Positions 44,521-64,000 of a stretch of DNA of 64,000 nucleotides are shown here, in pieces. The stretch's first letter is position 1. The number at the start of each line of letters is the position of its first letter. The DNA is taken from the IMG/VR virus record IMGVR_UViG_3300023202_000142, positions 1-64,000 of that record. One strand, written 5' to 3'. A model generated the notes under the pieces. The model did no database searches. It saw only the letters and a program-made list of their open reading frames with translations, and was not told where the DNA came from. The stretch comes from a virus. A program made the translations under genes and the position numbers.

Positions 44521-44916
44521 ATGTCAGACGTGACCACAATGATCGAGAGCTTCCTCGGAGACGGCGGCCTCGCCCTGAACGAGGCGGCAAAGGCCAGCCC
44601 GGTGAGGACTAAGGTCAAAATGGCAAAAGACCTGGAGACTCGCCTCCTGAAGCCCCTCAAGAAAGAACTGAACTGCCTTGGGTGGACGGTGCCTGGAGCC
44701 GAAATCGGATTCATCAACAAGGGCGGGTTCACGCTCGACCTCAAGGTCAGCTACCCTTTTCATCCCGAGTTCCCGAAGGACCCCAAAAAGGTCGCCGGAG
44801 AACTGGAAGCGGCTGTCAAGAAGGCGCTTTCTACGCGGGGCCAGATGAAGATGGATGTGCTCAGCCGGTATGAGAAGGATCGCACCGCAAGTATCGACAT
44901 CGCGTTCTGGAAGTGA
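44521..44916 (+). CDS. hypothetical protein with CTS-like leader
   Basis: MSDVTTMIESFLGD...LNEA; GAGGAG SD. Confidence 0.65.
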   Translation: MSDVTTMIESFLGDGGLALNEAAKASPVRTKVKMAKDLETRLLKPLKKELNCLGWTVPGAEIGFINKGGFTLDLKVSYPFHPEFPKDPKKVAGELEAAVKKALSTRGQMKMDVLSRYEKDRTASIDIAFWK

Positions 44917-44919
44917 TCC

Positions 44920-45162
44920 ATGAACTTGATCGACCGAATCGATGCCCTCCTGGAGATGCGGCCACGCAAGGTACGCAAACGCCTGCGTAAGGCCGGCTGC
45001 AAGGAGCTGCGCCAGAAGGGCTCCCATCTCAGGGTGAGCTGCCCGCCGGACGACCGGAAATCCACGATCCCTGTCCACAAGGGCAAGGACATCAAGAAGG
45101 GCACCCTGAAATCGATCGAGAAGGACCTCGACATCGACATCGATGGTGACGGCAGACCCTGA
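44920..45162 (+). CDS. hicA: HicA-family mRNA interferase (orphan), with CTS-like leader
   Basis: LRKAGCKELRQKGSHLRV...TIPVHKGKDIKKGTLKSIEKD; catalytic GSH retained. Confidence 0.85.
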   Translation: MNLIDRIDALLEMRPRKVRKRLRKAGCKELRQKGSHLRVSCPPDDRKSTIPVHKGKDIKKGTLKSIEKDLDIDIDGDGRP

Positions 45163-45210
45163 CGCACCTCCCGGGTAGACGACCCGCCTTGTCGTGTGTA
45201 GTCTGTGCAC

Positions 45211-45990
45211 ATGGCACGACCTGACATCGAAACCGTTCGAACAGTCTGTTCAGACCCTGGCTGTGAAGCCGAGTACACCGACGTCGTTCAGTACGTCTCA
45301 CCCCTGAACCATCTATGGGAGTGCTCGAAATGCCGACGCATCGGGCACACCGTCGACACCTCTGGGATCGAGATCGTCAGTGGCCCTGATGCGGTCTGGA
45401 AGCGACCGCTGTTATACCTGGACCGGCCTGAAGCCCTCCTCGCATCCGTGAGACACTTCAACAGAGCCAATGAGCCCCGCAAGGCGGACATCCTCGCGGA
45501 CCTGCTTCCCGACACCTGGCTGATCGAAAGCAACCACGCCAAACCACCCGAGGAAAGGTATCGGTGTGATTTTCCCAGACACGTCAAGGACGCCCTGGTA
45601 ATGCCGGTGCGGACAAAGTCCGGCGACACCTGGTCACTAGTCGTCTGGAGACCCAATGATGTTCTCCGTGGCGCCTATCTCGTCGACAAGGCTCCGACAC
45701 CTGAGCGCAACGAGGTCGTCGAGGCAGTTCCGCCACTGAAGAAACCATGGACGCTCACGTTCAAGCGTCCGTCGAGGAGCCCGTCACCCTACATTGAAGA
45801 ATGGCTCAACAAATACCCTAACCAGCGCGGCTGGGGCGATCATCTGGCACTAGAAAAGCACCGTGAGGCCGTCAAAGACATTCTGGAGTCCGGCGTTGAG
45901 CCCGACGGGGTTACCGGGGTCTTGCTCAGAAAATACGGAGGTGCACCGAGCCCCACAGCGATTGAGGCGTTTATCAGGGAGCTGACGTGA
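45211..45990 (+). CDS. Zn-ribbon hypothetical protein, probably leaderless
   Basis: TAGTCT-GTGCAC-ATG. Confidence 0.65.
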   Translation: MARPDIETVRTVCSDPGCEAEYTDVVQYVSPLNHLWECSKCRRIGHTVDTSGIEIVSGPDAVWKRPLLYLDRPEALLASVRHFNRANEPRKADILADLLPDTWLIESNHAKPPEERYRCDFPRHVKDALVMPVRTKSGDTWSLVVWRPNDVLRGAYLVDKAPTPERNEVVEAVPPLKKPWTLTFKRPSRSPSPYIEEWLNKYPNQRGWGDHLALEKHREAVKDILESGVEPDGVTGVLLRKYGGAPSPTAIEAFIRELT

Positions 45991-46250
45991 GGGACGAGAG
46001 CAAGTTCAGAAGCCCATTTGGGCCGATTAAGTTGCCTGACCAGGCAATGAAGCCTTGGGGAACGGTCTTCTATCCCGACGGCTCGAAACGGCGCGTCTGG
46101 ATGATTTACGCTGCCTCCGGGGTGCCACTGGGATTCGCCTACCAGGTCTTTTGCAATCTGATCCCCCACGAACTCACCGAGATCAAGCCAATGGAGCAAC
46201 CCGTTGGTACTGTGTTTTTCGAGAACTACACGAGGAACCATGATCTCTGA
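45987..46250 (+). CDS. hypothetical protein
   Basis: abutting ORF. Confidence 0.55.
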   Translation: MRDESKFRSPFGPIKLPDQAMKPWGTVFYPDGSKRRVWMIYAASGVPLGFAYQVFCNLIPHELTEIKPMEQPVGTVFFENYTRNHDL

Positions 46251-46401
46251 CTGGTGGCATACCCTCACTGAACCCCCGGTCCTGTACGATATCGGGACAT
46301 TGAGTCACCCCCTGCTGGTATGGGCATGGACGTCTCAGGAGAAGATGCGCTGGGCGCTATTCATCGAAAAACGCTACCCCTCGAAACGGAGGTTTGATTG
46401 A
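46240..46401 (+). CDS. small hypothetical protein
   Basis: GAGGA SD. Confidence 0.45.
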   Translation: MISDWWHTLTEPPVLYDIGTLSHPLLVWAWTSQEKMRWALFIEKRYPSKRRFD

Positions 46402-46829
46402 AGCTCGTGATCGCAGGGTCCAGAGGTATCGTTTCACACGACCACTGGTCGAAGCTGATACAGCTCATCGAAGAACTCGCCGAACTGGCCGACTCCTACC
46501 CTACCGAGGTCTTGCACGGCGGCAACATGCAAAGCCCGGATCGATTCGGGAACGAGTTGGCCGCGTCGTATGACTGCCTGGAAGTCGTCATCGCACCGGA
46601 CTACGATGCCGCGCGACGTAAGGGCATCCCCACCAAAGCAGCACCACAGATTCGCAACAACCAGCTCGCCGACCGCGGCGACGCCCTGGTTGGTCTCTGG
46701 GATGGCCAGTCACCGGGCACCGAGTCGATGATGAAGCGGTTTAAGAAAGCGAGGAAGCCGTACCGGGTCTGGCGCGTCGACAACCACGAGATTCTCCGGT
46801 TCACTGATGCCCAGGTGAGTTTGTTTTGA
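46398..46829 (+). CDS. SLOG-family (DUF2493/YspA-like) protein
   Basis: MKLVIAGSR...EVLHGG...RNNQLADRGDALVGLWDGQSPGT. Confidence 0.75.
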   Translation: MKLVIAGSRGIVSHDHWSKLIQLIEELAELADSYPTEVLHGGNMQSPDRFGNELAASYDCLEVVIAPDYDAARRKGIPTKAAPQIRNNQLADRGDALVGLWDGQSPGTESMMKRFKKARKPYRVWRVDNHEILRFTDAQVSLF

Positions 46830-47074
46830 GCGATGACGGAGACATTCTGGTCCACGGCCTCGGCTTGACGCGCGACGAACTACGCGCCGGGATGCTCCGA
46901 CTGAAGATGTCGGGATGGCCGATTCATGACATCAGGGCCAGGATGGCATGCGACGGCAACCTCAGCCCTTGTCTCGGCTCAAGGGTCGCGGCAGAATGGG
47001 CCAACTGCAACGGAAAAGCGGATGATCATGAAGAGCAACGAGTTGACCGAGCGAATCGATCAGTTCCTGAGTGA
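46826..47074 (+). CDS. hypothetical protein
   Basis: abutting ORF; C-terminal end uncertain. Confidence 0.4.
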   Translation: MSDDGDILVHGLGLTRDELRAGMLRLKMSGWPIHDIRARMACDGNLSPCLGSRVAAEWANCNGKADDHEEQRVDRANRSVPE

Positions 47075-47410
47075 AGCCGGGATGCCCGTCTACTCGGACA
47101 CCCTCTGTCCGCAGAGGAGTTCGCTGAGAGGCTTTACGCGATCGAGGACTGGCTCACCAGCGCGGCGAGCGATGTGAAGGCGATCCGAAAGACGATTGAA
47201 GGGAGCCGACGGTCCGCGAAGCGAAATATCAAGCCGAATGATCCTCCGTTCAAGAAGTTCTGGGCAGGCGTCCCCGTCAAGAAAGTGTTCCAGCGGTTTG
47301 CGTTGATCGGGGCCAAAAACACCCGCGGTGACCTCAAGAAGGCCCGCGAGGCATACGATGAGCTGCTTAAGGACTTCCAGGCCACCATGAAGCACTTCAA
47401 CATCCGATGA
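47028..47410 (+). pseudogene. frameshifted gene with CTS-like leader (CT duplication at ~47103-47106)
   Basis: MKSNELTERIDQFLSEAGMPVYSDT joins LSAEEFAERLYAIEDWLTSAASDVKAIRK... if one CT of CTCT is removed. Confidence 0.6.
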
Positions 47411-47949
47411 GCCTCATCGAAACCATAGATGTCCTCCTGGAGCGCGACGATTACTTCGACGACCCCAGTTTCGTCTGGGCCACCTTGCTCGACAACGCGT
47501 TCGACACCCCAATGCGATCGATCCGGCAATCGGTAAAGCACCACCCCTTCGCACACCGTCACGCCTTCGCCATGATGGTGCGCAGCGACGAGCACTGGGA
47601 GCGCTTCAACTACGAAGAGGATCTCATCCTTGGCGCCCTGCTTCATCTGGCAAAGAAGCACAGACCGCTCAAGAAGTCCGTCAAGGCCATCAAGAAAGAC
47701 CTGCGACTGGGGAGCAAGAGAGCTTCGAAAAGCGATGTCGAGGAGCGCACCGGCATGTCGCCCCGTGAATGGGAGCGTGAGTACGAAAAATACATCGATA
47801 AGTGGATGGACCGCGAAGACGACGGCGTGCTCCGCGAGCTATCTATCTCCCCTGACAACATTGATTCGATCGGTGACCTGGAGCCCGACCAGGCGCGCAA
47901 GGCCAGAAAGTGGATCACCGACTACCAGAAGAAACAGGGCTGGAGATGA
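47407..47949 (+). CDS. hypothetical protein with CTS-like leader
   Basis: MSLIETIDVLLER. Confidence 0.65.
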   Translation: MSLIETIDVLLERDDYFDDPSFVWATLLDNAFDTPMRSIRQSVKHHPFAHRHAFAMMVRSDEHWERFNYEEDLILGALLHLAKKHRPLKKSVKAIKKDLRLGSKRASKSDVEERTGMSPREWEREYEKYIDKWMDREDDGVLRELSISPDNIDSIGDLEPDQARKARKWITDYQKKQGWR

Positions 47950-48317
47950 ACGTTGTAGGCGAGGCTGAACGCCTTCTCAGCGAAGCAGAAGACGATCTGC
48001 CGAGTCTTGAAGACTGGATCAACCGTGACCCCTTCTCGCGGGGAAAGAAGCGCCTGCAGCGCGAGAGAAAGGCCCTGAAAAAGAAGTGGGAGCGTGAGGT
48101 ATCCCGTGATCGCGCGCGCCTTCGAGGCGCAAGAAACGTCGTCGACAAGATCGCCGGCGATATGGGGCCGGAATGGAAGGACGAGGGCTACACTGACGCC
48201 GAGGTCGAATCGACAGCGTTCGGCACTGCGCACGACATGAGACCCGACCTTCGCTGGTGGTTGATCTGGAACCAGCACCGTGAAATCCCGCTGAAGTCGA
48301 TCCCGCTTCGCTGGTGA
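47946..48317 (+). CDS. hypothetical protein with CTS-like leader
   Basis: MNVVGEAERLLSEA; GGAG SD. Confidence 0.6.
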   Translation: MNVVGEAERLLSEAEDDLPSLEDWINRDPFSRGKKRLQRERKALKKKWEREVSRDRARLRGARNVVDKIAGDMGPEWKDEGYTDAEVESTAFGTAHDMRPDLRWWLIWNQHREIPLKSIPLRW

Positions 48318-48902
48318 CTACAGCGGTCGCATCCCCATCGACACCCTGAACTGCGAGATGAACTGCTTCACTGTGGGGATTTTCGCTCCGGTCTGATTGC
48401 GCAGCACCATCGCCGCCTTCATGAGGTCGTCAGCCTTGATGTGCTTCCTGGCCTTCTTGACGACCGTCTGCGGCCACAGTCGATTGGACTGGTCACTGGG
48501 GTGCCACGGGACGCCGCTGACGGTCTCCCACAGCAGGCTGGAGTTCTGGACGATGTTGCGGCCGGTCAGCAGGCGCTTGGCCTTCGATACCTGGACAACC
48601 TTCGCTGACGACAGCTTGATCGAGTCAGCGTGCCAGATCACTTCCTCGGGGTAGACGACCTGGGGATCCTGCTTCGTGGTGAAGATGACCGCGAAATTCC
48701 GGCTCGTCGCACGGCCGAGCTTGGTGGTTGCTACGCCGCCTACGAACTTGCCGCCCTCAGCCACCGCGTAGACCCCGTTCACGATGCTCGATTTATCTAG
48801 TCGTCGGGAGGACGCGATGGCCTCAGCTCCGACCTGGTCGGAAAAGTGGACGTAACGGACCTGGCGCGCTTCAAGCAAGATGTCAACGGCCTCAACGAGC
48901 AT
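48318..48902 (-). CDS. hypothetical protein with CTS-like leader
   Basis: MLVEAVDILLEAR; lone (-) gene; YAV...G.F..G.ATT...AV.F.T pattern faintly ART/Tox-like but not assigned. Confidence 0.6.
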   Translation of the reverse strand: MLVEAVDILLEARQVRYVHFSDQVGAEAIASSRRLDKSSIVNGVYAVAEGGKFVGGVATTKLGRATSRNFAVIFTTKQDPQVVYPEEVIWHADSIKLSSAKVVQVSKAKRLLTGRNIVQNSSLLWETVSGVPWHPSDQSNRLWPQTVVKKARKHIKADDLMKAAMVLRNQTGAKIPTVKQFISQFRVSMGMRPL

Positions 48903-49006
48903 GTCGGCGATTCTCTCCGACAAGCCCCGGAGACGCAACAGGTTGCTGTCTGCTGTCCCGTTGGGTACGTTCGGGGGACAGAGAAGACCATGCAAGGGAG
49001 AAGACC

Positions 49007-49633
49007 ATGCAAGTACGCGACAAGACGTCCGTAACGATCGACATCAGCGTCGAAGCTGGTGCTGGAGAAGACCTCGAAGTGGACATCCTGGAGGACAAGA
49101 ACCAGGAGCCGAGGATCGAAGCAGGCAAAGTTGTCGAGACTGGACTGCCTCCGCTCGATACCCTGGGGCGGGTAGCCAAGGTGCTCCGAAATGAGGAGGC
49201 CATGGCATTTCAGCGAGTCAGGCCGGGCACTTCCACCACCTTCGAGGTCGAGCCAGGTGACTCGATCCTGTTGACCCGCAACGGGAACAAACGAGTGCAC
49301 GTGCACCAGCTTGGGGAACATCAGTTCCTCGTTACGCGCGATGAACTCAAGCGTGTCATCGGCATGGTTGCCGAACTGAAGCCCGACGCCCTACAGCTAC
49401 TCCTGAAGCTCATCGAGCCCGCGGAGTTCTCGATGGAGCTACTGCGCTTCGCCATCGAGCAGGCGCGCGAAGGTGTCGAGCCCGACGAGCCCGACGAAGA
49501 ACGCTATGCTCGTTTCGCGCGCGAAGCGTTGCAGCGATCAGGTGGAGAGAACAACATTCTCCACAGCATGGCCAAGAGCATCGATGAAGCATCGAAACGC
49601 GATCCGCTGGAGCCGCCTAGCTTCGACGAGTAG
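49007..49633 (+). CDS. hypothetical protein
   Basis: second of two duplicated GAGAAGACCATG starts is in frame. Confidence 0.6.
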   Translation: MQVRDKTSVTIDISVEAGAGEDLEVDILEDKNQEPRIEAGKVVETGLPPLDTLGRVAKVLRNEEAMAFQRVRPGTSTTFEVEPGDSILLTRNGNKRVHVHQLGEHQFLVTRDELKRVIGMVAELKPDALQLLLKLIEPAEFSMELLRFAIEQAREGVEPDEPDEERYARFAREALQRSGGENNILHSMAKSIDEASKRDPLEPPSFDE

Positions 49634-49671
49634 GGGTCGATTCGATCGGCCGCTGGGGGTAGGATGCCAGC

Positions 49672-50394
49672 ATGAATATTATCGAACACATCGACGCGCT
49701 GCTTGAAGCCAAAGTTCGCTGGAAGTGGCCGACCAAGAAGCAGCTCGTTGATGAGTTCGAGACCGAGCCCTGGATCCGATCGCTGTTCGGCGGTGACATT
49801 TCCTGGGTTCGAGACGGGACCTACGACGACAGTTCCGCGAAGAGGTTTTTCCTCGATCACCTCAAAAAGGTCTCAAAGACCAAGGTGTTCAAGAAACCAC
49901 CGCGCGGGATCGAGTTCCACAAGGCCGACTCGATCGACAAGCTGGCGCAGAAAACCGAGTACATGGGCAAGGACGTCCAGTCATTAGCTGATGCGATGAA
50001 ACGCGGCGGCAGTCTCCCCATGCCGATCCTCGTCAAGTCCGGTGGCACCTACAAAATGCTCGGTGGTCGCACCAGGTTCGGTGTCGCATCGATTTTAGGA
50101 ACCCCCGTGAAAGCAATTGTCGTTGACCTCAAGAGGCTCGCCGGTGCCCTTCAGGAATGGGCTCGCGATGAGTTCATTCACAACCCGAAAGGGATCATAG
50201 CGAAGGCGCCTGTGACTGCCGAGGAGCGCGAGGAGTGGTACGACTGGGTCTGGGGCGGCCAACGCGGCCCGATGCCCCTGGAGGGGCTAGAGAAGCGCTG
50301 GGACCTCAGTTTCTCCAAGGTCTGGGCGAGCCTGTTCGCACGCCAGTTCGACAAGATGGATCTCAAAGAGACGTTCAAAAGCAAGAGGGGCTGA
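49672..50394 (+). CDS. ParB/sulfiredoxin-like domain protein with CTS-like leader
   Basis: SLADAMKRGGSLPMPILV...YKMLGGRTRF...VKAIVVD; MNIIEHIDALLEA. Confidence 0.65.
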   Translation: MNIIEHIDALLEAKVRWKWPTKKQLVDEFETEPWIRSLFGGDISWVRDGTYDDSSAKRFFLDHLKKVSKTKVFKKPPRGIEFHKADSIDKLAQKTEYMGKDVQSLADAMKRGGSLPMPILVKSGGTYKMLGGRTRFGVASILGTPVKAIVVDLKRLAGALQEWARDEFIHNPKGIIAKAPVTAEEREEWYDWVWGGQRGPMPLEGLEKRWDLSFSKVWASLFARQFDKMDLKETFKSKRG

Positions 50395-50783
50395 TGCTGG
50401 TTGAAGACGTAGATCGTCTGCTGGAGGCAAGGGAATACGCTTACGGGGCCCAGAACAGACCTGTCGCAACAGCTCAGGTGCCTGATGGCTGGATCGACAC
50501 CCGCAAGGATCGCCGCTTCAGGCATGGTGTGGTTGTCTACAAGAAGCCGCTGAGCGATCGCGAGGTCAGAAACTTCCAGCTCACCCCGTTGATTCCGCGC
50601 CGCGACCTTGCAAAACAGATCGCCCAAGAGATCGACTACCCCGAAGCCTACGTCGAGATCTACGATGACGATCCCCGGGAATTCGCGTCGATGCTACAGA
50701 TGCTCGACCTGCCAGATGCCAGAGCGATCGAAGGGGACAATGACCGGAAATTGCATGCCATGATCATCAAAGAGCTGAAATGA
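50394..50783 (+). CDS. DarA_C-like domain protein with CTS-like leader (putative)
   Basis: YAYGAQNRP...VPDG...FRHGVVVYKKPLSDREVRNFQLTPL resembles the 'defence against restriction A C-terminal' module; MLVEDVDRLLEAR. Confidence 0.55.
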   Translation: MLVEDVDRLLEAREYAYGAQNRPVATAQVPDGWIDTRKDRRFRHGVVVYKKPLSDREVRNFQLTPLIPRRDLAKQIAQEIDYPEAYVEIYDDDPREFASMLQMLDLPDARAIEGDNDRKLHAMIIKELK

Positions 50784-51106
50784 ACCTCAACCCCGGAATT
50801 CGTCGTCTCGTCGCCTGGCTCAACGAGCACAACTTCAAGACCATTGATTCCGGTGACGGTGCAACCCATGACCACGAGTGCGACCGCGATCATCCCTACG
50901 TTGTCATCCAGCTCGAAGCCCCTGCGTTCATCGAGTGGCACGCCAGTCGTCTGAAACAGCTCCTCGAAAACGAGGGGATCGAATTCGATCCGGCGCAACC
51001 CCACGGGCCCTTCCTGCAGGCAAACTACAGTCCCGTGGACGGTTACGCGTTCCTCGAAGTGCTCAACCTGACCGACGACATGATCTGGCCCGCAGAAGAC
51101 GCGTGA
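50780..51106 (+). CDS. hypothetical phage protein
   Basis: IRRLVAWLNEHNFKTIDSGDG. Confidence 0.6.
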   Translation: MNLNPGIRRLVAWLNEHNFKTIDSGDGATHDHECDRDHPYVVIQLEAPAFIEWHASRLKQLLENEGIEFDPAQPHGPFLQANYSPVDGYAFLEVLNLTDDMIWPAEDA

Positions 51107-52426: not shown

Positions 52427-52431
52427 TAGCC

Positions 52432-54127: not shown

Positions 54128-55345
54128 ATGGAAAAGACCTGTCCCAGATGCGGTGCCCACGCCGCCTGTCCCGAGGAGATCGACCTCGTGTTCGGGTGGC
54201 GCTACGAAGGTACCACTCCTCAGTCGTGGTGCCACGACTGTCGGACCCGACGCGGTGAGTTCGCTGCTGAGCGAGTCAGCCTGGACGTCGGTGCCCGACT
54301 CGGCGCCACCTACTTCGCCAGCGGCTCGAATCACCCTGGTGAGATTCTCGGTCTCGCCGAGTGCGGGATCGATGTCGGCGTCGCAATTCAGGATCTGCAC
54401 TCCGATGGCGAGGCGGCCATCGCTGAGGCCGTCACCCGCTTCGGCGTCTCGGTCTTTGTCGACTCTGGCGCCTTCTCCGAGGTCAGCTTCGGTCCTGACG
54501 GCCCCTACGTCTCCGACCGGATCCCTGATGACGAGTGGCGGGCTCGCCTCGCGGCCTACGAACGAATCGCGTCAGACATCGGCTCTGCGCTCTTCGCCGT
54601 CGCCCCTGACATGATCGCTCATCAGATCGAAACCCTGGGCCGCATGGAAAAGTTCCGCAACGAAATCCGAGCGGTCGCCGCCCACGGCGCCAACGTTCTC
54701 GTTCCGGTCCAGAAGGGTGAGCTGGCGATGTCGGAGTTCTGGGAACTGGCCACTGAGACCCTTGGGGTCGACGACCCCGTTGCCGCGGTTCCGATGAAAA
54801 AGGACGCCACGACGACCGACGAATTCGCTGAGTTCCTGGCAGCTTGCCGGCCCGGTCGGGTCCACCTGCTCGGTCTGGGGCCCAAATCCTCCCGGTTCCG
54901 GGAAGTGATGGCGGTCGCCCGCTCGGTGAGCCCGGAGACCGAGGTGTTCTGTGACTCCGTTCTCATCACTTCACTGGTCGGCCGAAGCAACGGCCGCGGC
55001 GGCGGACCCCGGCCGTTAACCGCGGCCCATGACGAAGTCGTCGAGTTCGTTGAAGGCGGCGTCTTTGTCGGTGACGTCTCTCCCGCCCTGGACTGGACGG
55101 AGATGGCGACCCGCCCGAGTTACTGGGTGTCAGCAACCGGCCTGAAACGAGTTGCCCGCTTTGCTGGTCTCACCGGTTCCACCCGAGCCGCCTTTCTCAA
55201 GGATCCCGATGAATGGGTTGAAGAGAACTGGGAGAACCCGCTGGTCGAGGTCGCCCTGGAGGCCGAGTGGGCCAAGTGGGCCAAGGGTTCCGGTTCCACT
55301 CGGTTCCGTAAGCGAGAGTCGCTCAAGGCGCTGTTCATGGTCTGA
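54128..55345 (+). CDS. Zn-module + tRNA-guanine transglycosylase / DpdA-like protein
   Basis: VFVDSGAFSE, VAPDMI...ETL, VPVQKG, RVHLLGLG, CDS: TGT-fold motifs; N-terminal CPRC...QSWCHDC. Confidence 0.65.
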   Translation: MEKTCPRCGAHAACPEEIDLVFGWRYEGTTPQSWCHDCRTRRGEFAAERVSLDVGARLGATYFASGSNHPGEILGLAECGIDVGVAIQDLHSDGEAAIAEAVTRFGVSVFVDSGAFSEVSFGPDGPYVSDRIPDDEWRARLAAYERIASDIGSALFAVAPDMIAHQIETLGRMEKFRNEIRAVAAHGANVLVPVQKGELAMSEFWELATETLGVDDPVAAVPMKKDATTTDEFAEFLAACRPGRVHLLGLGPKSSRFREVMAVARSVSPETEVFCDSVLITSLVGRSNGRGGGPRPLTAAHDEVVEFVEGGVFVGDVSPALDWTEMATRPSYWVSATGLKRVARFAGLTGSTRAAFLKDPDEWVEENWENPLVEVALEAEWAKWAKGSGSTRFRKRESLKALFMV

Positions 55346-57058: not shown

Positions 57059-57664
57059 ATGGCTATCCGGTACAAAACTCGACGGGTGGAATACGGGCAC
57101 TACGAAATCCGTGCCTACGACGGCCGCAAGCGCATCGGTCGCATCGTGATCATGAACCTGGGGAAGCTGGCAAGCGTTGAGGCCGTCCGGGTCGCTGACG
57201 AATACCAGCGTCAAGGGATCGCCACTGAACTCTACTTGATGGCGGCCAAGGTCTCCTGCAAAGAATTCGGTAAGCCGCTTGCGTCAGCGAACTGGGGATC
57301 TATCCCCGCCGCCAAAGGGGTGTGGCGAAAGCTTGTATCGAAGGGCAAGGCGAAGCGCTACACTCAGAAGAAACACCACAAGGACATACAGGGTTACCTG
57401 ATTCCCTGCAGGGGCGTCGAGATCCCCGACGGTGTCGTCATCGAGTCGCTCGTCGAGTACATCGATCACCTCCTAGAAGCTGAGGGCTCCCTGGTAGACA
57501 TGGCACGTGACCGTGCGCGCGGGGATGCTCCGGCGGGGTCAGGCAAGGCCGACTACTTGCCCGATGAGCCCGAGGAAGAGCCCGAGGAAGAGCCCGAGGA
57601 AGAGCCCGCCCAGCCCGGCACCGATGCGACCACCGCTGGTGTCCCGGGTGTCGGTGTCGACTAA
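57059..57664 (+). CDS. GNAT acetyltransferase with internal CTS-like motif and acidic tail
   Basis: VRVADEYQRQGIATELY (acetyl-CoA motif A); LVEYIDHLLEA; EPEE repeats. Confidence 0.75.
   Translation: MAIRYKTRRVEYGHYEIRAYDGRKRIGRIVIMNLGKLASVEAVRVADEYQRQGIATELYLMAAKVSCKEFGKPLASANWGSIPAAKGVWRKLVSKGKAKRYTQKKHHKDIQGYLIPCRGVEIPDGVVIESLVEYIDHLLEAEGSLVDMARDRARGDAPAGSGKADYLPDEPEEEPEEEPEEEPAQPGTDATTAGVPGVGVD
57566..57608 (+). repeat. 12-bp coding tandem repeat x3.6
   Basis: GAGCCCGAGGAA x3 + GAGCCCG. Confidence 0.9.
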
Positions 57665-57730: not shown

Positions 57731-58582
57731 ATGCCAGAAATGAGAATCCAGGTGCTCGACGGCGGGTTCGTCGAACTCATCGACATCATGGGCGACGACC
57801 GCGCGATCGAAGAGGCGGCCCGGGTGTCCTACAAGGGCACCCGCGACGAGGAGCGAGATCCCAAGCAGACCAGGGGGTTGATCCGGTATCTGATGCGCAA
57901 CCGTCACACCTCACCCTTCGAGATGGTGTCGTTCAAGTTCGCCTGCAGGATGCCGATGTTCGTGGCCCGGCAATGGGTCCGCCACCGCACCGCGAGTCTG
58001 AATGAAATCAGCGGAAGGTATGCCGAACTGCCGGCCGACTACTACGTTCCCGCGCCCGAGCGCGTGACGTTCCAGTCCAGGTCCAACAAGCAGGGCTCGT
58101 CGGACGAACAGCTCGAAGAGCCAGCCGAATGGATTGAAGAGTTCGACACCGAAGCCATCAGTGCGTTCGAGTTGTACCAGGAGCGCCTCGAAGCCGGGAT
58201 GGCCAAGGAGTTGGCGCGCATCAATCTACCGTTGTCGACATACACTGAGTGGGTCTGGAAGATGGACCTCCACAACCTGTTCCACTTCCTCAATCTCAGG
58301 CTGCATCCTCACGCCCAGCACGAGATTCGGGTCTACGCCAAGGCTATCGCGGAGTTCGTCAAGCAAGCGGTCCCGGTCTCCTGGGGCGCATTCGAGGACT
58401 ACGTGCTCAACGCCATCCATCTCACCTACCCCGAGCAGGTCGCGATTCGGCAAATGCAGGAACCAGTTGAAGCTAACTTCGAGGATGCCTGCAAGGCCGC
58501 TGAGCTGAGCGGACGTGAGCAGCGCGAGTTGCGCGAAAAGCTCGATGTTCTGGAGATCGGCAGGGTCGAGATCCCTTTCTGA
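57731..58582 (+). CDS. thyX: flavin-dependent thymidylate synthase
   Basis: HTSPFE, PMFVARQWVRHRTASLNEISGRY, HAQHEIR. Confidence 0.95.
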   Translation: MPEMRIQVLDGGFVELIDIMGDDRAIEEAARVSYKGTRDEERDPKQTRGLIRYLMRNRHTSPFEMVSFKFACRMPMFVARQWVRHRTASLNEISGRYAELPADYYVPAPERVTFQSRSNKQGSSDEQLEEPAEWIEEFDTEAISAFELYQERLEAGMAKELARINLPLSTYTEWVWKMDLHNLFHFLNLRLHPHAQHEIRVYAKAIAEFVKQAVPVSWGAFEDYVLNAIHLTYPEQVAIRQMQEPVEANFEDACKAAELSGREQRELREKLDVLEIGRVEIPF

Positions 58583-58622
58583 ACTCGATGCATCTAAGCT
58601 CTAGTTCGGCTACGCTGAGGTT

Positions 58623-59078
58623 ATGACAGAAGAAACCGTCAATCTCGCTGACATTGTCCAGTTCGCCTCGCAGCACTGGGTAGAACTGGGCACCGGGGCC
58701 GCAGCGGTGACCGCTACAATCTTCCTGGTCGAACTGGGTAAGGGCTGGTTGAAGCTGTGGGTCGCGGATCGTGGCTACTCCGAGCAGTTCGAGGAGAACG
58801 CCGTCCGAACCCTGGTCTTTGCGCTGTCGGTGCCAGTCGCCTGGCTCCTCGAATTCGGCAAGACCTGGGAGTCGTTCTTCGGTAGACCCATGGGCACCGG
58901 CGCCGAGCTGTTCGTTGGCGGAGCCATCACAGCGATCATTAGCATCGTGGTTTACCTGTTCATCCACCGCATTGAACCGATCGAGGTAGCCAGACTGAAG
59001 CTCTACAAGTGGCTGAAGGTCAGCCCCGGCGAAATCGAGAAGGCCCGAAACAACCGACGCGACCAAAAAGGTTCTTGA
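58623..59078 (+). CDS. membrane protein, holin-like (putative)
   Basis: three hydrophobic segments, basic C-terminus. Confidence 0.45.
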   Translation: MTEETVNLADIVQFASQHWVELGTGAAAVTATIFLVELGKGWLKLWVADRGYSEQFEENAVRTLVFALSVPVAWLLEFGKTWESFFGRPMGTGAELFVGGAITAIISIVVYLFIHRIEPIEVARLKLYKWLKVSPGEIEKARNNRRDQKGS

Positions 59079-59244
59079 CCGCATCGCGACCCCGTCGCTA
59101 CAGTCGTCGTCACGGGATGCGACCGGCCACCTTGGAACGAAAACATGATGCAATCATTGCCCAGTCAGATTTGCTCCTCGCTGCTTCCGAGCAGCCACTG
59201 GAGGCGTCTGCGCTGAGCGACTGAATACATCGTTCAAGCCGAAG

Positions 59245-59303
59245 AAGCCTCCAGTCACTGACTGGGGGCTTTTTTCGTTTGGGTCTTTGACAACTGAAGA
59301 TGA
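59245..59303 (+). promoter_or_regulatory. hairpin + U-tract followed by rrn boxA-like leader
   Basis: 12-bp stem 59245-59271, T-run, then GGGTCTTTGACAACTGAAGATGA. Confidence 0.65.
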
Positions 59304-59308
59304 TGTAA

Positions 59309-59382
59309 GCCCGGGTAGGCTAACTGGCAACGCCGCGGTCCTAAGAAGGCCGTGAGTGTGGGTTCGACTCCCACCCCGGGTA
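59309..59382 (+). tRNA. tRNA-Leu(AAG), short variable arm
   Basis: cloverleaf; CGGTC-CTAAGAA-GGCCG; no CCA. Confidence 0.75.
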
Positions 59383-59384
59383 CT

Positions 59385-59456
59385 GCTCCCGTACCCCAAC
59401 GGCAGAGGAGCGGCCTTAAAAGCCGTCGAGTCCGGGTTCGATCCCCGGCGGGAGCA
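59385..59456 (+). tRNA. tRNA-Leu(TAA), short variable arm
   Basis: GCGGC-CTTAAAA-GCCGT. Confidence 0.8.
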
Positions 59457-59458
59457 TG

Positions 59459-59531
59459 GCGCCCATAGGCCAACAGGAAGAGCCGCGTGGTTCAAACCCC
59501 GTGGGTCCAGGTTCGATCCCTGGTGGGCGCA
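59459..59531 (+). tRNA. tRNA-Leu(CAA), short variable arm, imperfect anticodon stem
   Basis: CGTGG-TTCAAAC-CCCG. Confidence 0.7.
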
Positions 59532-59535
59532 TGAT

Positions 59536-59621
59536 GGAGGGTTGGCAGAGCGGTAATGCATCGGTCTTGAAAACCGACGAGTCCCTGACGGGGCGCGAGG
59601 GTTCGATCCCCTCACCCTCCT
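59536..59621 (+). tRNA. tRNA-Ser(TGA)
   Basis: TCGGT-CTTGAAA-ACCGA; long variable arm. Confidence 0.9.
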
Positions 59622-59625
59622 CTGA

Positions 59626-59697
59626 CTGGGTGTGGGCCAGTGGTTGGCCACTTGCTTTGGGAGCAAGGTTACGGGGGTTCGAATCCCTCCACCCAGA
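59626..59697 (+). tRNA. tRNA-Pro(TGG)
   Basis: CTTGC-TTTGGGA-GCAAG. Confidence 0.9.
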
Positions 59698-59770
59698 TGA
59701 CCTGTAGCTCAATTGGCAGAGCACTGCACTTTGACTGCAGTGGTTCGAGGTTCGAATCCTCGCAGGTCAA
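59698..59770 (+). tRNA. tRNA-Gln(TTG)
   Basis: CTGCA-CTTTGAC-TGCAG. Confidence 0.92.
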
Positions 59771-59773
59771 TGC

Positions 59774-59844
59774 GGCGACGTGTGCGAGTGGTTAGCGCTC
59801 GGATTGCAAACCCGAGGACGCGGGTTCGAGTCCCGCCGTCGCCT
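59774..59844 (+). tRNA. tRNA-Cys(GCA)
   Basis: loop TTGCAAA; U73. Confidence 0.88.
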
Positions 59845-59845
59845 T

Positions 59846-59930
59846 GGAGCAGTGGCAGAGTGGCAATGCAGCGGGTTGCTAACCCGTAGGTCGTTTCGAC
59901 GGCCCGGGGGTTCGATCCCCTCCTGCTCCG
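59846..59930 (+). tRNA. tRNA-Ser(GCT)
   Basis: GCGGG-TTGCTAA-CCCGT; long variable arm. Confidence 0.9.
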
Positions 59931-60000
59931 TATCTCACTGAAATCGAGCTGGAATCAGCTCGGAGCTGGCTGCTAGGGTCGGGTAACCCTGGAGGCTCAG

Positions 60001-60273
60001 ATGACTCTGACAGAACACGTGGACCTTCTCCTCGAAGCGCGCATGTCGTCGCGGGAGCAGAAGCTAGTCGGTAACATGTTGGTGGGCATGGAGATGGAAG
60101 AATACGGTGGCAACACCGAGCGCTTCTACCGCTGGATCGAGCGGAAGACGGATGAATTCCTGGAGGAACTCTACGCAAGGCTCGAAGGTAACGTGCGCGA
60201 AGCCGACCGGAAGAGGCTAACATCGCTAAAGGCCAGGGAGTACATTGCATTGCACAACATGGCGCTAACCTAG
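60001..60273 (+). CDS. hypothetical protein with CTS-like leader
   Basis: MTLTEHVDLLLEAR; GGAGG SD. Confidence 0.65.
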   Translation: MTLTEHVDLLLEARMSSREQKLVGNMLVGMEMEEYGGNTERFYRWIERKTDEFLEELYARLEGNVREADRKRLTSLKAREYIALHNMALT

Positions 60274-60282
60274 CCCGCCTCG

Positions 60283-60501
60283 CTAACCGAGGTCTCCGGG
60301 CTCAGCCCCGTCGAGAACTCCGAGGACCAGTCGACGGTATTCGTCTCGGGGGATCTCGATGGCGTCGGCGATGGCATCAAGGATGTCTCCGGGGGTGCAG
60401 CCTGCTCGAAGACGACTGACGATGATAGCACCTCCGACCACGAGTCGGTCGGGATTGACGTACATCTCAAGGGTTGGTTCAGAATCTTGTGCATTGGGCA
60501 T
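60283..60501 (-). CDS. hypothetical protein
   Basis: AGGAG SD. Confidence 0.55.
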   Translation of the reverse strand: MPNAQDSEPTLEMYVNPDRLVVGGAIIVSRLRAGCTPGDILDAIADAIEIPRDEYRRLVLGVLDGAEPGDLG

Positions 60502-60569
60502 CTCCTATCCCCTCCAACTGCGTTTTGATAGTCTGAGGCTGTCCGTAGCTCGACGCAACAGGAGACGCA

Positions 60570-60980
60570 ATGAGAGACATTCTGAACCGCTTACTGAGTA
60601 GACTGCCCCACCAGTGGGCTCGTGATGCCTCGACCGGCCAACACGCCCTCCTGGAGGCTGTGAGCTTCGAATTGCAGCGCATCTATGATCGAATCGGCGG
60701 TCGGCCCGATCAAATCGTGTTCGAACGCGTCGATCTGATGAACCCCTCACCCGACGATGTCCTGGTGTTGACCATGAAGGTCCCGACATCATTCGGGATC
60801 ACGAACTGGATCGACCAGGCGCAACGGATGAGTGATGACCTCAAGGATGCCCTGGGGGTTCGTGAAATCATCGTACTGCCAGACATCGTACACATCGAAA
60901 ACCTGGGTAATCTCGACGCCAACACCGCAAAAGAGCTTGGGAAGCTCAGGAATGTCATCGCGGCACTGAAGGGTGCTTGA
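60570..60980 (+). CDS. hypothetical protein
   Basis: AGGAG SD. Confidence 0.6.
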   Translation: MRDILNRLLSRLPHQWARDASTGQHALLEAVSFELQRIYDRIGGRPDQIVFERVDLMNPSPDDVLVLTMKVPTSFGITNWIDQAQRMSDDLKDALGVREIIVLPDIVHIENLGNLDANTAKELGKLRNVIAALKGA

Positions 60981-61143
60981 CGACCGAATCCAGGTTCAGT
61001 AGGGTTCGTTTTGAAGCAATGCTCACTGCCCGAGAAGGACAGATGCTTTCAACACGGATGGAAACAGGTACGGATAATCGCTGGACCGGGACGCCCCGGG
61101 CCGGAGGCGATGTCGTGTAACTGTTGTTCATCGACATGAGTCT

Positions 61144-61205
61144 AGGCCCGGAGGAAACCCCTCCGGGCCTTTTCTCGTTCTGGGGTCTTTGAAAATTGAA
61201 GATGA
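61144..61205 (+). promoter_or_regulatory. hairpin + U-tract followed by rrn boxA-like leader
   Basis: AGGCCCGGAGG/CCTCCGGGCCT stem, T-run, then GGGTCTTTGAAAATTGAAGATGA. Confidence 0.65.
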
Positions 61206-61209
61206 AAAG

Positions 61210-61281
61210 TGGTCGGTAGCTCAGCGGTAGAGCGTCGGGTTGTTAACCCGAGGGTCGTGGGTTCGAGCCCCACCCGGCCAG
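61210..61281 (+). tRNA. tRNA-Asn(GTT)
   Basis: TCGGG-TTGTTAA-CCCGA. Confidence 0.92.
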
Positions 61282-61285
61282 TTCA

Positions 61286-61358
61286 GCCCCCTTGGCCCAG
61301 TGGCTAGGGCAACCCGTTGTCTGCGGGAAGATCGTCGGTTCGACTCCGACAGGGGGCG
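61286..61358 (+). tRNA. tRNA-Asp(GTC), pyrimidine at 37
   Basis: CCCG-TTGTCTG-CGGG. Confidence 0.8.
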
Positions 61359-61376
61359 CTGGGGGCAACCCCATGA

Positions 61377-61450
61377 AGCGGGATAGAGCAGTCTGGTAGC
61401 TCGTCGGCCTCATAAGCCGAAGGCCGGGGGTTCAAATCCCCCTCCCGCTA
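61377..61450 (+). tRNA. tRNA-Met(CAT), initiator-like body
   Basis: GAGCAGTCTGGTAGCTCG, CTCATAA loop, TTCAAAT T-loop; A1-U72 paired and only two of the three G-C anticodon-stem pairs. Confidence 0.88.
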
Positions 61451-61517
61451 CTGAGTGCGCACATCGACCAAGGCGGTCCTAGATCACGGGTACGCGGGTT
61501 GGTGAAGGCGGCTCAAT

Positions 61518-61591
61518 GCCAGTGTAGCTCAATCAGGCAGAGCAGCTCCCTTGTAAGGAGAAGGCTGGGGGTTCGATTCCCTTCACTGGCT
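61518..61591 (+). tRNA. tRNA-Thr(TGT)
   Basis: CTCC-CTTGTAA-GGAG. Confidence 0.9.
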
Positions 61592-61595
61592 TAGC

Positions 61596-61668
61596 GTCGC
61601 CGTCATCTAGTGGCCCAGGATGCCGGGTTTTCAGTCCGGTCACGGGGGTTCGAGTCCCCCCGGCGATA
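61596..61668 (+). tRNA. tRNA-Glu(TTC)
   Basis: CCGGG-TTTTCAG-TCCGG. Confidence 0.88.
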
Positions 61669-61672
61669 CTGT

Positions 61673-61746
61673 AGGGAGCGCGCGCTGGGTACGCGGTCTG
61701 GCCTCCAAAGCCGGACGACAGCTCGGATCGTCACCGAGGCTCTCTG
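61673..61746 (+). tRNA. tRNA-Trp(CCA), non-canonical T-loop
   Basis: CTGGC-CTCCAAA-GCCGG; T-loop ATCGTCA; acceptor AGGGAGC/GCTCTCT. Confidence 0.65.
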
Positions 61747-61749
61747 TGT

Positions 61750-61843
61750 GCAGGCGTGGCCCGCCAGAGCTGGAGAGCTGGGCCGGGCTGTAAACCCGGT
61801 GCACCCAAATAAGACTGAGTGGGTTCGACTCCCACCTCCCCTA
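61750..61843 (+). pseudogene. tRNA-Tyr(GTA)-like with broken acceptor stem
   Basis: CCGGG-CTGTAAA-CCCGG and GTGGG-TTCGACT-CCCAC intact; 5' end does not pair with CTCCCCT. Confidence 0.55.
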
Positions 61844-61853
61844 TGGAGAATGC

Positions 61854-62069
61854 ATGACACGCAACGATGACATCACCCCCTACGCGCGGCGCATCAGGCG
61901 TATGCTGCATGAGCGCATGAACCCCGAAGCGGTCGAGGTCGAGGTCGAGATCATGCGACGTCTTCGTGAGACCTCCGAGCGCAGTGTCTACCACCGCGCC
62001 ATGCTCACGCCCCTACCTGTTGAGTCTGGAGGTGCCGCGTTTCTGCGGCGCGACAAACCCGAGGAGTGA
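61854..62069 (+). CDS. small hypothetical protein inside the tRNA array
   Basis: GGAGA SD; fills the gap between tRNA-Tyr-like and tRNA-Lys. Confidence 0.5.
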   Translation: MTRNDDITPYARRIRRMLHERMNPEAVEVEVEIMRRLRETSERSVYHRAMLTPLPVESGGAAFLRRDKPEE

Positions 62070-62074
62070 GGTTC

Positions 62075-62148
62075 GGGCCGGTAGCTCAGTTTGGCAGAGC
62101 GGCGGATTCTTAATCCGCAGGTCGAGGGTTCGATCCCCTCCCGGCTCA
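62075..62148 (+). tRNA. tRNA-Lys(CTT)
   Basis: GCGGA-TTCTTAA-TCCGC. Confidence 0.92.
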
Positions 62149-62152
62149 CTTC

Positions 62153-62228
62153 GCGCCCGTAGCTCAACTAGGTTCAGAGCATTCGACTTTTAATCGAAGG
62201 GTTCTCGGTTCGATTCCGAGCGGGCGTG
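62153..62228 (+). tRNA. tRNA-Lys(TTT)
   Basis: TTCGA-CTTTTAA-TCGAA. Confidence 0.92.
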
Positions 62229-62244
62229 CTGTACGATCCCTTCC

Positions 62245-62565
62245 ATGTTTCGACTGTTATTCAGGGCCCTCAAGGGCATCGGTGAGATCATCCACCGTGC
62301 ACCTGGCTGGAAGTGTTCAGATTGCGGAAAGGCCATGGCGCCCGGCCATCGGTGCATCAACGTTCACGTTCTTCCGGCGAAGCCACAATCGCGTCGCTAC
62401 CCGGTGGCTAAAACACCATTCAGGATGGTGTTCCATCCTACAGGGGCGGTCCGGCGAACCGTGTTTATCGGGACGACTCTTTCGGCAGAGCGTTCAGGGG
62501 GAGCCAAGGGGTGTCGACCCACTGAGCCCGATCGCCTGGGCGGCCAGCTCCTCAAGACGCTGTAG
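62245..62565 (+). CDS. hypothetical protein (CxxC), possibly leaderless
   Basis: TACGAT-7 nt-ATG. Confidence 0.45.
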   Translation: MFRLLFRALKGIGEIIHRAPGWKCSDCGKAMAPGHRCINVHVLPAKPQSRRYPVAKTPFRMVFHPTGAVRRTVFIGTTLSAERSGGAKGCRPTEPDRLGGQLLKTL

Positions 62566-62662
62566 CGTTGCTTCGGGTCTGAGGTCAGACTATTCTCGGT
62601 CCGAGGAAGGATTCAAGGCCACAAGATGAGCGGTGGTCGTCGATCAGCCGCGGGAGCCTAGC

Positions 62663-62944
62663 ATGGATGTTCAGGACCACATCGACCATTTCTTTGGAGA
62701 AGCTCGTACACGCGGGCGCGCAAGCGTGGGGGATGCCAGAGGACAGGCATCCGAGGTGACTCGAAGGATCGGGGAAGCATTCCTTGAAGCCACCACCCTG
62801 AAGGGCGACTTCGACGCCATGGACGAGATCCCTACATCAGCCCGGAAGATATACGACCGGACCCTGAAGGTCATGGATCTGCTCGGAAAGGCCAAGAAGG
62901 AAGCCTATCAGACCGAAATGGAGCTTCGGAGGGGCAAGTTTTGA
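62663..62944 (+). CDS. hypothetical protein with CTS-like leader
   Basis: MDVQDHIDHFFGEAR; GGGAG SD. Confidence 0.65.
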   Translation: MDVQDHIDHFFGEARTRGRASVGDARGQASEVTRRIGEAFLEATTLKGDFDAMDEIPTSARKIYDRTLKVMDLLGKAKKEAYQTEMELRRGKF

Positions 62945-63186
62945 GCATCCAAGACCACATCAACGCATTCATCGGGGAATCGCCTCAACGCCCTCTCAGT
63001 GAAGCTGAGAGCGAATCTGCGATTCGCGCGCTGATCAATGACAAACTGAAACGAGCTGAGATGCTTCGAGGGATTGCCTCCGGCGACACCTTCGACGACA
63101 CCACTCGCGAGAAGCTGATGAAGTTCATCGACTCGGAGCACAAGGCCCACAAGCAGCTCCAGAAGCTTCTGGGCGGCGAATACTAG
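62941..63186 (+). CDS. hypothetical protein with CTS-like leader
   Basis: TTG start, MSIQDHINAFIGES. Confidence 0.6.
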   Translation: MSIQDHINAFIGESPQRPLSEAESESAIRALINDKLKRAEMLRGIASGDTFDDTTREKLMKFIDSEHKAHKQLQKLLGGEY

Positions 63187-63629
63187 TACGCTGCAGCCTT
63201 CTGTTCGAGCTGCTCGAAGATCTTCTGCTGGACCTCGGCCGACTCGCTGCTCTTCTTTTTCTTCGGCTCAGCCTTCGCTAGTGGCCGATCTGGCTCACCC
63301 TCACTCTCTGCCCCTCCTCCGGTCTCTTCGAGATCCACGGCAATCGCCGGGACAGACTCCCCCATTCCGAGCATCGATGCATGAATTGCAACGGTGACTC
63401 GCAACTCCCGGTTCTCATCTTCAAGGTCTTCGACATCCGTCTTGAGTCCGTTGATCTCCCCCAGCAACGACTCAACAATCAGCTTGTCGGACGCCATCGT
63501 GACCTCTTGAGCCTTCTCCTGGTCTCCCCTGGTGTCGAAGTACTGCACTGTTGCCGTAATGGCCGTTGCCACCGCGAGGATGACCGCAGCCCACGAAGGT
63601 GCATCTCGTTTCGCCTTCTCTTTGTCCAT
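63183..63629 (-). CDS. membrane-anchored coiled-coil protein
   Basis: N-terminal TM (WAAVILAVATAITATV) + heptad coil. Confidence 0.55.
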   Translation of the reverse strand: MDKEKAKRDAPSWAAVILAVATAITATVQYFDTRGDQEKAQEVTMASDKLIVESLLGEINGLKTDVEDLEDENRELRVTVAIHASMLGMGESVPAIAVDLEETGGGAESEGEPDRPLAKAEPKKKKSSESAEVQQKIFEQLEQKAAAY

Positions 63630-63703
63630 GATCCGTCCGTTGTTTCAGTCCCGGGTACACAGTATCTTCGGTGAAGTCTGGCTGACACGAAACTGGAGAA
63701 GCA

Positions 63704-64000
63704 ATGGCGAACCTGACCACAACCCTGATGGAGAACTTCCTCACGGAACGTGCTGACGAACCCAGTTGGATCGATGCGCTGTGGGATTTCGAGCGAAAGC
63801 TCGCCGAATACCTCCGCGGCTCGACAGACAGCAAGTACGCCAAGAAGATGAGGCGCAAGCCCAAGATCGGGCGCGCCGGAAGAGGAAAGGGTGCTTCCCT
63901 GGAGTACACTTTCGACGATGGCAAGATCACGTTCACGGCCAGTGTCGTTTCGGACAAGGACAAGATCCGCCTGGCATACTCGGGCAACCATCCCGGCCTG
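63704..64000 (+). CDS. hypothetical protein with CTS-like leader (partial, runs off window end)
   Basis: GGAG SD; MANLTTTLMENFLTER... Confidence 0.6.
   Translation, partial: MANLTTTLMENFLTERADEPSWIDALWDFERKLAEYLRGSTDSKYAKKMRRKPKIGRAGRGKGASLEYTFDDGKITFTASVVSDKDKIRLAYSGNHPGL

Follow-up and report, generated by a model that had tools for sequence, protein, structure and literature searches.

The window considered here comprises 64,000 bp, the first 64 kb of a single virus record of 185,324 bp (IMG/VR record IMGVR_UViG_3300023202_000142), and genome coordinates are given on the same scale. The G+C content of the record is about 60%, and 293 genes were called across it by a scorer of codon bias and ribosome sites that was blind to the motif described below. 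No DNA similarity to the region was detected in known phages; judged by its genes, the source is a distant T4-like phage, with a protease of the gp21 family, a capsid protein of the gp23 type, a portal of the gp20 type, and the head-gene order of T4. The subject of this work is a short leader peptide with which about twenty unrelated, mostly small basic proteins of this genome begin. The leader is an acidic amphipathic helix of 11–14 residues located at the extreme N-terminus, follows the pattern M-x-h-h-[ED]-x-[IV]-[DE]-x-h-h-(x)-E (h, hydrophobic residue), and is devoid of a hydrophobic core of the signal-peptide type. A preliminary description of the window had reported such leaders at the N-termini of 13 proteins and an additional copy within a further protein; all 13 were found at the start codons of the genes listed here, and the internal copy is present at 57449. 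In the list, a slash marks the end of the leader, P1 and P3 designate the last leader residue and the residue two positions before it, P1' designates the residue that follows P1, aa stands for amino acids, ORF for open reading frame, and pI for isoelectric point.

3194–4507, plus strand: tagged gene, 437 aa; leader in codons 1–13 (3194–3232), ending L-I-E/A; mature part very basic (pI 10.1), with three DUF5710 repeats
44521–44916, plus strand: tagged gene, 131 aa; variant leader with Asp at the usual P1 position
44920–45162, plus strand: tagged HicA-family toxin gene, 80 aa; leader in codons 1–12 (44920–44955)
47028–47177, plus strand: possible tagged ORF, 49 aa; 16-residue leader ending L-S-E/A; missed by the motif-blind gene finder, coding status therefore uncertain
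47407–47949, plus strand: tagged gene, 180 aa; 12-residue leader ending L-L-E/R; no known domain matched
47946–48317, plus strand: tagged gene, 123 aa; weaker 13-residue leader ending L-S-E/A
48318–48902, minus strand (the sole tagged gene on this strand): 194 aa; leader in codons 1–11 (48902 down to 48870), ending L-L-E/A; mature pI 10.6
49672–50394, plus strand: tagged gene, 240 aa; best-scoring leader (24 bits)
50394–50783, plus strand: tagged gene, 129 aa; 11-residue leader followed by a DarA_C domain at residues 14–66; translationally coupled to 49672
57059–57664, plus strand: gene for a GNAT-like protein, 201 aa; internal leader copy at residues 131–140 (57449–57478)
60001–60273, plus strand: tagged gene, 90 aa; 12-residue leader ending L-L-E/A; located between two tRNA arrays
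62663–62944, plus strand: tagged gene, 93 aa; 13-residue leader form ending F-G-E/A
62941–63186, plus strand: tagged gene, 81 aa; 13-residue leader form ending I-G-E/S; coupled to 62663
63704–64000, plus strand: tagged gene, 144 aa, cut by the end of the window (whole gene 63704–64138); weaker 15-residue leader ending L-T-E/R

Further members were found beyond the range covered by the preliminary description:

64135–64707: tagged gene
80995–82107: tagged gene
111937–112236: tagged gene within the head module
155900–156148: tagged gene
169264–169692: tagged gene
170480–170758: tagged gene
170751–171086: tagged gene
171088–172272: tagged gene
184293–185177: tagged gene
185174 to the contig end: tagged ORF, cut by the contig end

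The leader is strongly enriched at N-termini. A strict pattern gave 11 N-terminal matches where 0.04 were expected from 200 shuffles, and its 8 matches among 54,026 interior positions correspond to a 25-fold N-terminal enrichment; a loose pattern gave 21 N-terminal matches (1.05 expected from shuffles). With a position-weight matrix and a threshold of at least 8 bits, 16 N-terminal copies were found (0.11 expected, 300 shuffles), all of which start at residues 2–4, and this comparison with a shuffled proteome, which the preliminary description had proposed, gave the excess that it had anticipated. About seven weaker variants occur beside these 16 strong copies genome-wide. Two interior copies match the N-terminal ones in score, namely that of the 57059 protein and one at residue 28 of ORF 78595, in which a GTG at codon 29, near the leader copy, may be the true start. 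Downstream of the leader the proteins differ from each other: an all-against-all BLAST comparison yielded 64135/184293 as the sole paralogue pair, in line with the earlier claim that the downstream sequences are unrelated.

Where known domains were recognized in the tagged proteins, they begin just past the leader, at residue 16 in the case of HicA, at residue 14 in the case of DarA_C, and at residue 21 in the case of DnaJ, and the leader is an add-on module located ahead of separate domains. The HicA label given previously to the 44920 protein was confirmed by a match to PF07927 (E = 2.1e-16; 60.2 bits, cut-off 27) that covers profile positions 2–58 of 58. The domain comprises residues 16–72, with G34, S35, and H36 invariant across 21 homologues, and the AlphaFold2 model of the protein has an alpha-beta3-alpha fold with a mean predicted local distance difference test (pLDDT) score of 74, residues 1–10 having a pLDDT below 50 and lying outside the HicA fold. 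Canonical HicA homologues begin directly at the domain, without a leader. No antitoxin gene was recognized beside 44920; the adjacent gene 44521 was considered as a HicB-like antitoxin and found to be without support from Pfam or the ESM Atlas. The 50394 protein likewise deserves its label, as it matches the DarA_C family (PF18789; 30.9 bits, cut-off 27; E = 3.8e-7) and also phrog_1926 (E = 5.4e-11), which is annotated as 'released from the phage upon host infection'. The remaining two labels held only in weakened form. For 49672, described as ParB-like, there was no Pfam hit at E ≤ 0.01, and the label now depends on a language-model lead, that is, an ESM Atlas feature score of 0.92 to ParB_N (PF02195) clusters, with nine of the ten best in one family and a structural template modelling (TM) score below 0.5; in a database of 5.8 billion proteins, no homologue was found besides 49672 itself. 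For the 57059 protein, the match to the GNAT family PF00583 (19.7 bits; E = 1.1e-3) is below the cut-off of 20.7 and comprises residues 19–64 only. DarA and ParB-like domains typically occur in proteins that are packaged or injected (PMC5512222).

The tagged proteins also share a charge property. Their predicted mature parts have a median pI of 9.8 compared to 5.2 for the rest of the proteome, and a pI above 8 was found for 81% of the mature parts and 17% of the other proteins (Fisher test, 1.5e-9).

The 57059 protein ends in an acidic Pro/Glu-rich tail, located after the internal leader copy and containing (Pro-Glu-Glu-Glu) repeats, and it may undergo processing at a site inside the chain or at the C-terminus, like Alt of T4.

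The preliminary description had called for a search for a gp21-type prohead protease and for corresponding cleavage sites in core and capsid proteins. Such a protease is encoded outside the window, within a head module with the following genes:

Start at 106337: large terminase
108394–110139: gp20-type portal (PF07230, Portal_T4; E = 1.7e-52)
110579–111940 (L003:6579-7940): 453-aa protein with a long acidic tract followed by a basic one, located between the portal and protease genes
111937–112236: tagged, very basic protein, 99 aa, pI 11.3, at the gp68 position of the head module
112236–113942 (L003:8236-9942): gp21-family protease fused to a scaffold-like coiled coil, 568 aa
113991–115511 (L003:9991-11511): gp23-family capsid protein (PF07068; E = 3.6e-63)

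The protease part of the 112236 protein matches Peptidase_S77 (PF03420; E = 4.5e-14; 52.8 bits, cut-off 27) and phrog_207 (E = 5e-44), and it could be aligned to the structure of T4 gp21 (5jbl; E = 1.5e-6), the aligned motifs containing His, Ser, and Asp. The capsid protein shows 25% identity to T4 gp23 over 510 columns (E = 2e-25). For the comparison with T4, the genes ip, 67, 68, 22, and 23 were read from the T4 record NC_000866, in which the order of the head genes is 20, 67, 68, 21, 22, 23; the order portal, acidic protein, basic protein, protease/scaffold, and capsid protein found here is the same apart from the fusion of genes 21 and 22. The coiled-coil part of the fusion comprises about 380 residues, a separate gp22-like scaffold gene is absent, and the relative L012 contains the same protease-scaffold fusion with a length of 533 aa.

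In T4, cleavage by gp21 takes place after L/I-x-E (PMC9026906), and the ends of the leaders conform to this rule. The Glu residue is located at residue 9–15 in 20 of the 21 leaders, P3 is Leu in 18 of them and Ile, Phe, or Met in one each, and P1' is Ala in 13. For comparison, the leaders in the T4 record end with I-A-E/A in the case of IPII and IPIII and with I-T-E/A in the case of IPI. The deviating leader is that of 44521, in which a second site, L-N-E/A, follows seven residues past the P1 Asp and places the Glu at residue 21; this site equals the H-L-N-E/A of the capsid protein itself. Targeting and processing have been mapped to different residues of the T4 leader, and an Asp at P1 stops cutting and leaves targeting intact (PMC9026906), a finding with which the arrangement in 44521 is consistent.

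The search for L-x-E sites in core and capsid proteins was also positive. In the capsid protein, two such sites are located ahead of the conserved fold, their positions are kept in 16 of 16 aligned clade sequences, and they fall into the linker region that matches the T4 cut after residue 65 (PMC5694885). The protease-scaffold protein contains 25 [LI]-x-E sites compared to 10.2 expected, making it the densest of any protein above 110 aa, and such a density would be expected if the core is cut into pieces. The 110579 protein contains a run of about 40 Asp/Glu residues and then an Arg/Lys-rich block, and sites in the middle of the protein end with L-Q-E/A and L-H-E/A.

A search with the capsid protein revealed a clade of uncultured phages at 45–58% identity and one 9.7-kb fragment at 94%; the closest pieces were L031 (94%) and L008 (58%), and a scan of metagenomes for closer relatives recovered the same clade only, with 37–50% capsid-protein identity. 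Three complete genomes of relatives, designated G001, G002, and G003, were fetched for comparison with the present genome (G0). None of them contains the G0 leader and each has a version of its own. In G002, 22 N-terminal copies end with Q-L-x-E/A (0.15 expected), G001 contains 7 copies of the same form (0.18 expected), and G003 about 12 copies of an intermediate 13-residue form. The 13-residue variants of G0 align position by position with the leaders of the relatives, and all leaders can therefore be regarded as versions of one clade-wide leader. The mature cargo of G002 is also basic (pI 9.7 compared to 6.6; p = 2e-5), is not homologous to that of G0, and includes one protein with an SprT-like zincin domain. 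When orthologues of 20 tagged G0 proteins were searched in G001 and G002, a counterpart was found for HicA only. HicA orthologues from several lineages are 69–79% identical in the mature part and share 3–5 of 12 leader residues with G0, whereas the leader of G0 HicA matches that of the unrelated G0 protein 155900 at 10 of 12 positions. Such concerted, genome-specific remodelling of the leader is the pattern that would be expected of a signal read by one common partner. In the lineage represented by L027, L086, and L087, four tagged genes, that of HicA among them, come immediately after the capsid gene; L031 likewise has a tagged gene in this place, for a basic protein with 53% identity to 170480. 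A leader-like stretch located about 3.4 kb upstream of the capsid gene in relatives lies inside a longer ORF and was not counted.

The principle that short N-terminal sequences target proteins to the capsid of T-even phages has been established since the 1990s. We consider the leader described here to be a signal of this type, that is, a T4-type capsid-targeting and prohead-protease cleavage signal on cargo proteins, and assign this reading a probability of about 0.7. By analogy with T4 and from the gene context, the leader would dock a newly made protein onto the scaffolding core during prohead assembly, the scaffold-fused gp21-family protease would cut behind the last Glu of the leader (Leu at P3, Glu at P1, and mostly Ala at P1'), and the freed, mostly basic mature protein would stay with the packaged DNA and be ejected into the next host; docking, cleavage, packaging, and injection are all inferred in this way. 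The cargo would then consist of a HicA RNase toxin, a DarA_C protein, a J-domain protein, possibly a ParB_N-like protein, and many orphans.

The parallels to T4 are considerable. T-even internal proteins share only the N-terminal packaging leader, by which many ip genes were found (PMC3012670; PMC12373910), and the first 10 residues of IPIII are sufficient for targeting (PMC9026906). As with the T4 capsid-targeting sequence (CTS) of IPI, IPII, IPIII, and Alt, the leader is a short N-terminal propeptide present on unrelated, non-essential, mostly basic proteins, and both end with a hydrophobic residue, any residue, and Glu, followed by Ala. Both occur together with a protease of the gp21/S77 family, a gp23 capsid protein, and a gp20 portal in the same gene order, and just as ipII and ipIII are located on one side of the T4 tRNA cluster and ipI on the other, tagged genes flank tRNAs here. 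There are also differences: the leader has 11–14 residues rather than 10 and another consensus, the protease is fused to the scaffold, the T4 late promoter is absent, and the cargo includes HicA, J-domain, and DarA_C proteins, such named domains not having been reported for T4 cargo. Furthermore, this genome has 16–23 tagged genes, whereas T4 has 3–4 and the T-even phages together have about 10 types (PMC12373910). The preliminary description had interpreted the leader as an independent packaging tag. The core of this proposal, a capsid-targeting and protease signal, is the best supported interpretation, whereas the independence from T4 was not upheld, as the T4-like head genes and the identical rule of a hydrophobic P3 and a P1 Glu point to a divergent member of the T4 system. 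The leader is thus most likely a relative of the T4 capsid-loading signal and not an independent invention, and with the same protease family, cleavage rule, and architecture it extends a known mechanism to a far-removed uncultured clade.

Several observations weigh against this interpretation. The likeness between the leader and the T4 CTS is one of pattern only (P5 acidic, P3 hydrophobic, P1 Glu, P1' Ala). The T4-type late promoter TATAAATA is absent from the genome, a k-mer search upstream of structural and tagged genes gave ribosome-binding words only and no shared motif, and, as a late promoter was not found, synthesis of the tagged proteins at the time of assembly is not established; the gene at 3194 is even located behind a promoter box of the early type. 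The 57449 copy is a genuinely internal one that has no start codon in its vicinity, which would not be expected of a strictly N-terminal signal, and the tagged set of G001 (n = 7) is not significantly basic. Finally, a HicA toxin made in the producing cell without an antitoxin calls for an explanation; one may speculate that the leader masks the activity of the cargo until it is removed.

This last point leads to an alternative in which the leader is a propeptide removed by the head protease and without an addressing role, perhaps one that keeps toxins and DNA-binding proteins inactive until maturation, loading being determined by binding of the basic mature part to DNA or by another feature. 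An acidic leader on basic cargo could indeed mask charge, the conserved end of the leader is the cleavage site, and HicA has no recognizable antitoxin neighbour. We regard this explanation as unlikely: conservation spans all 11–13 residues and thus extends beyond P3–P1, the leader changes in concert within each genome, which implies a common partner beyond the short site of the protease, and in T4 targeting and processing use different leader residues (PMC9026906). A recognition peptide for some partner unrelated to the capsid, such as an enzyme of the type acting on ribosomally synthesized and post-translationally modified peptides (RiPPs) or a radical S-adenosylmethionine (SAM) enzyme, a chaperone, or a secretion or localization system, appears improbable. 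The genome contains no radical-SAM gene in a search whose control was positive in 14 of 14 genomes, and a RiPP-type or radical-SAM leader was therefore rejected; moreover, the leader ends in accordance with the gp21 rule and lacks the hydrophobic core of a signal peptide, tagged genes are located in or beside head modules, and the cargo is basic and includes a DarA_C protein.

The clustering of the tagged genes could also suggest that the likeness of the leaders stems from a nucleic-acid element spanning the start codons (a translational operator, a target of a small RNA, or a recombination box) or descent of a shared N-terminal domain. The chance of this being so is very small. The pairwise nucleotide identity of the leaders is 0.538 compared to 0.554 ± 0.012 after random back-translation with the codon usage of the genome, so that the excess nucleotide conservation predicted for such an element was not found; identical residues share their codon in 36% of the cases (41% expected), and Leu, Glu, Asp, and Ile codons vary freely among the copies. 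Synonymous sites are hence as free as codon usage allows, and because the codons vary in this manner, selection acts on the peptide. In addition, the early cassette composed of a GTGCAC / GGAGGTAGC promoter and a ribosome site and found at many other small genes of this genome is absent from the tagged genes, with the promoter box near 3194 as the sole exception, and the downstream domains belong to different Pfam families.

The N-termini of gp22, gp67, and gp68 in the T4 record consist of a short helix ending with L/I-x-E followed by Ala or Asn, as do the leaders, and the Q-L-x-E/A form of the relatives resembles the first ten residues of T4 gp22. In G0, the 110579 protein with its acidic tract and the basic 111937 protein hold the positions of gp67 and gp68; T4 gp67 also has a long acidic tract, and the C-terminal half of T4 gp68 is strongly basic like the tagged 111937 protein. 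No sequence homology of G0 proteins to gp67 or gp68 was detected, the likeness being one of position, composition, and N-terminal pattern. That the leaders imitate the N-termini of core proteins is suggested by the common N-terminal form as a lead, not a result. A tentative extension, which we find possible though somewhat doubtful, is that the leaders might be address codes specific to each lineage, co-evolving with the scaffolding core and imitating gp22-, gp67-, and gp68-like N-termini. Cargo passing between lineages would then have to be re-addressed, as the HicA orthologues would illustrate with their similar mature parts (69–79% identity) and dissimilar leaders (3–5 of 12 residues).

Phage P1 possesses the Dar system (DarA, DarB, DdrB), whose anti-restriction proteins are packaged in the head and injected, with the 30 N-terminal residues of DarB acting as CTS. 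The DarA_C domain and the possible ParB-like domain found here in an adjacent, coupled gene pair (49672, 50394) recall these and the polyvalent proteins; unlike the present system, however, the protease of phage P1 is of the HK97 type and its signal is longer and unrelated, and polyvalent proteins combine their domains in a single chain, whereas in this genome every domain has a gene and a leader of its own. In the giant phages phiKZ and SPN3US, a gp21-related protease (S80) makes its cuts after S/A-x-E and numerous internal proteins of the head undergo processing, the propeptides of their ejection proteins being longer than 100 residues and not a short shared tag (PMC5694885).

If the proposed function is correct, the clade spends about 7–8% of its genes on proteins that are carried in the capsid and reach the host before phage gene expression. 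The leader then provides a simple sequence criterion by which first-strike proteins can be picked out among orphan genes (toxin, DarA-like, and J-domain proteins), and genome-specific tags on orthologous cargo could reveal the partner of the CTS in the prohead core; the tags could also supply alternatives for protein loading. Should the address-code proposal hold as well, a natural set of orthogonal capsid-loading tags and a covariation handle on CTS binding would be available, and the RNase toxin and the J-domain protein would be injected as first-strike takeover factors.

Further features were noted in the course of the analysis. The gene at 3194–4507 is the sole plus-strand gene within a 31-kb block of small minus-strand genes, and the GTGCAC-N-GTGCAC promoter/operator box adjoining it may be bidirectional. 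A perfect 12-bp palindrome, GCACCCGGGTGC, usually extended to T/C-GCACCCGGGTGCAG, occurs in 11 copies where about 0.04 were expected by our own estimate from base composition, at 44416, 53686, 1154, 17212, and 27429 in the window and at 74766, 81306, 91190, 110142, 125421, and 168797 in the genome. Some copies are located just upstream of genes (44521, 53702, and 168878), one comes immediately behind the portal gene, and at least one falls within a gene (80995); a dimeric DNA-binding protein could recognize the palindrome. Clustering of N-termini revealed a second, weaker family, composed of proteins that start with a C-x-x-C zinc-ribbon-like motif and are encoded at 54128–55345 and 38008–38586 in the window and at 69597–70595 (minus strand) and 102062 in the genome, those at 54128 (405 aa) and 69597 (332 aa) having the appearance of paralogues. 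In G001, positions 152519–153761 (L039) contain three tandem paralogues of 131–145 aa with the common N-terminus M-S-D-P-K-(x)-E-M-T, which is unrelated to the leader family. The two tRNA arrays are located at 59309–62229 in the window, flanked and interleaved by the tagged genes 60001 and 62663–64707. Within the first array, between tRNA-Leu(taa) and tRNA-Ser(tga), ARAGORN predicted a tRNA with the four-base anticodon caaa (window 59459–59531), which may be a normal tRNA-Leu(caa) whose loop was called oddly or else a tRNA of the frameshift-suppressor type.

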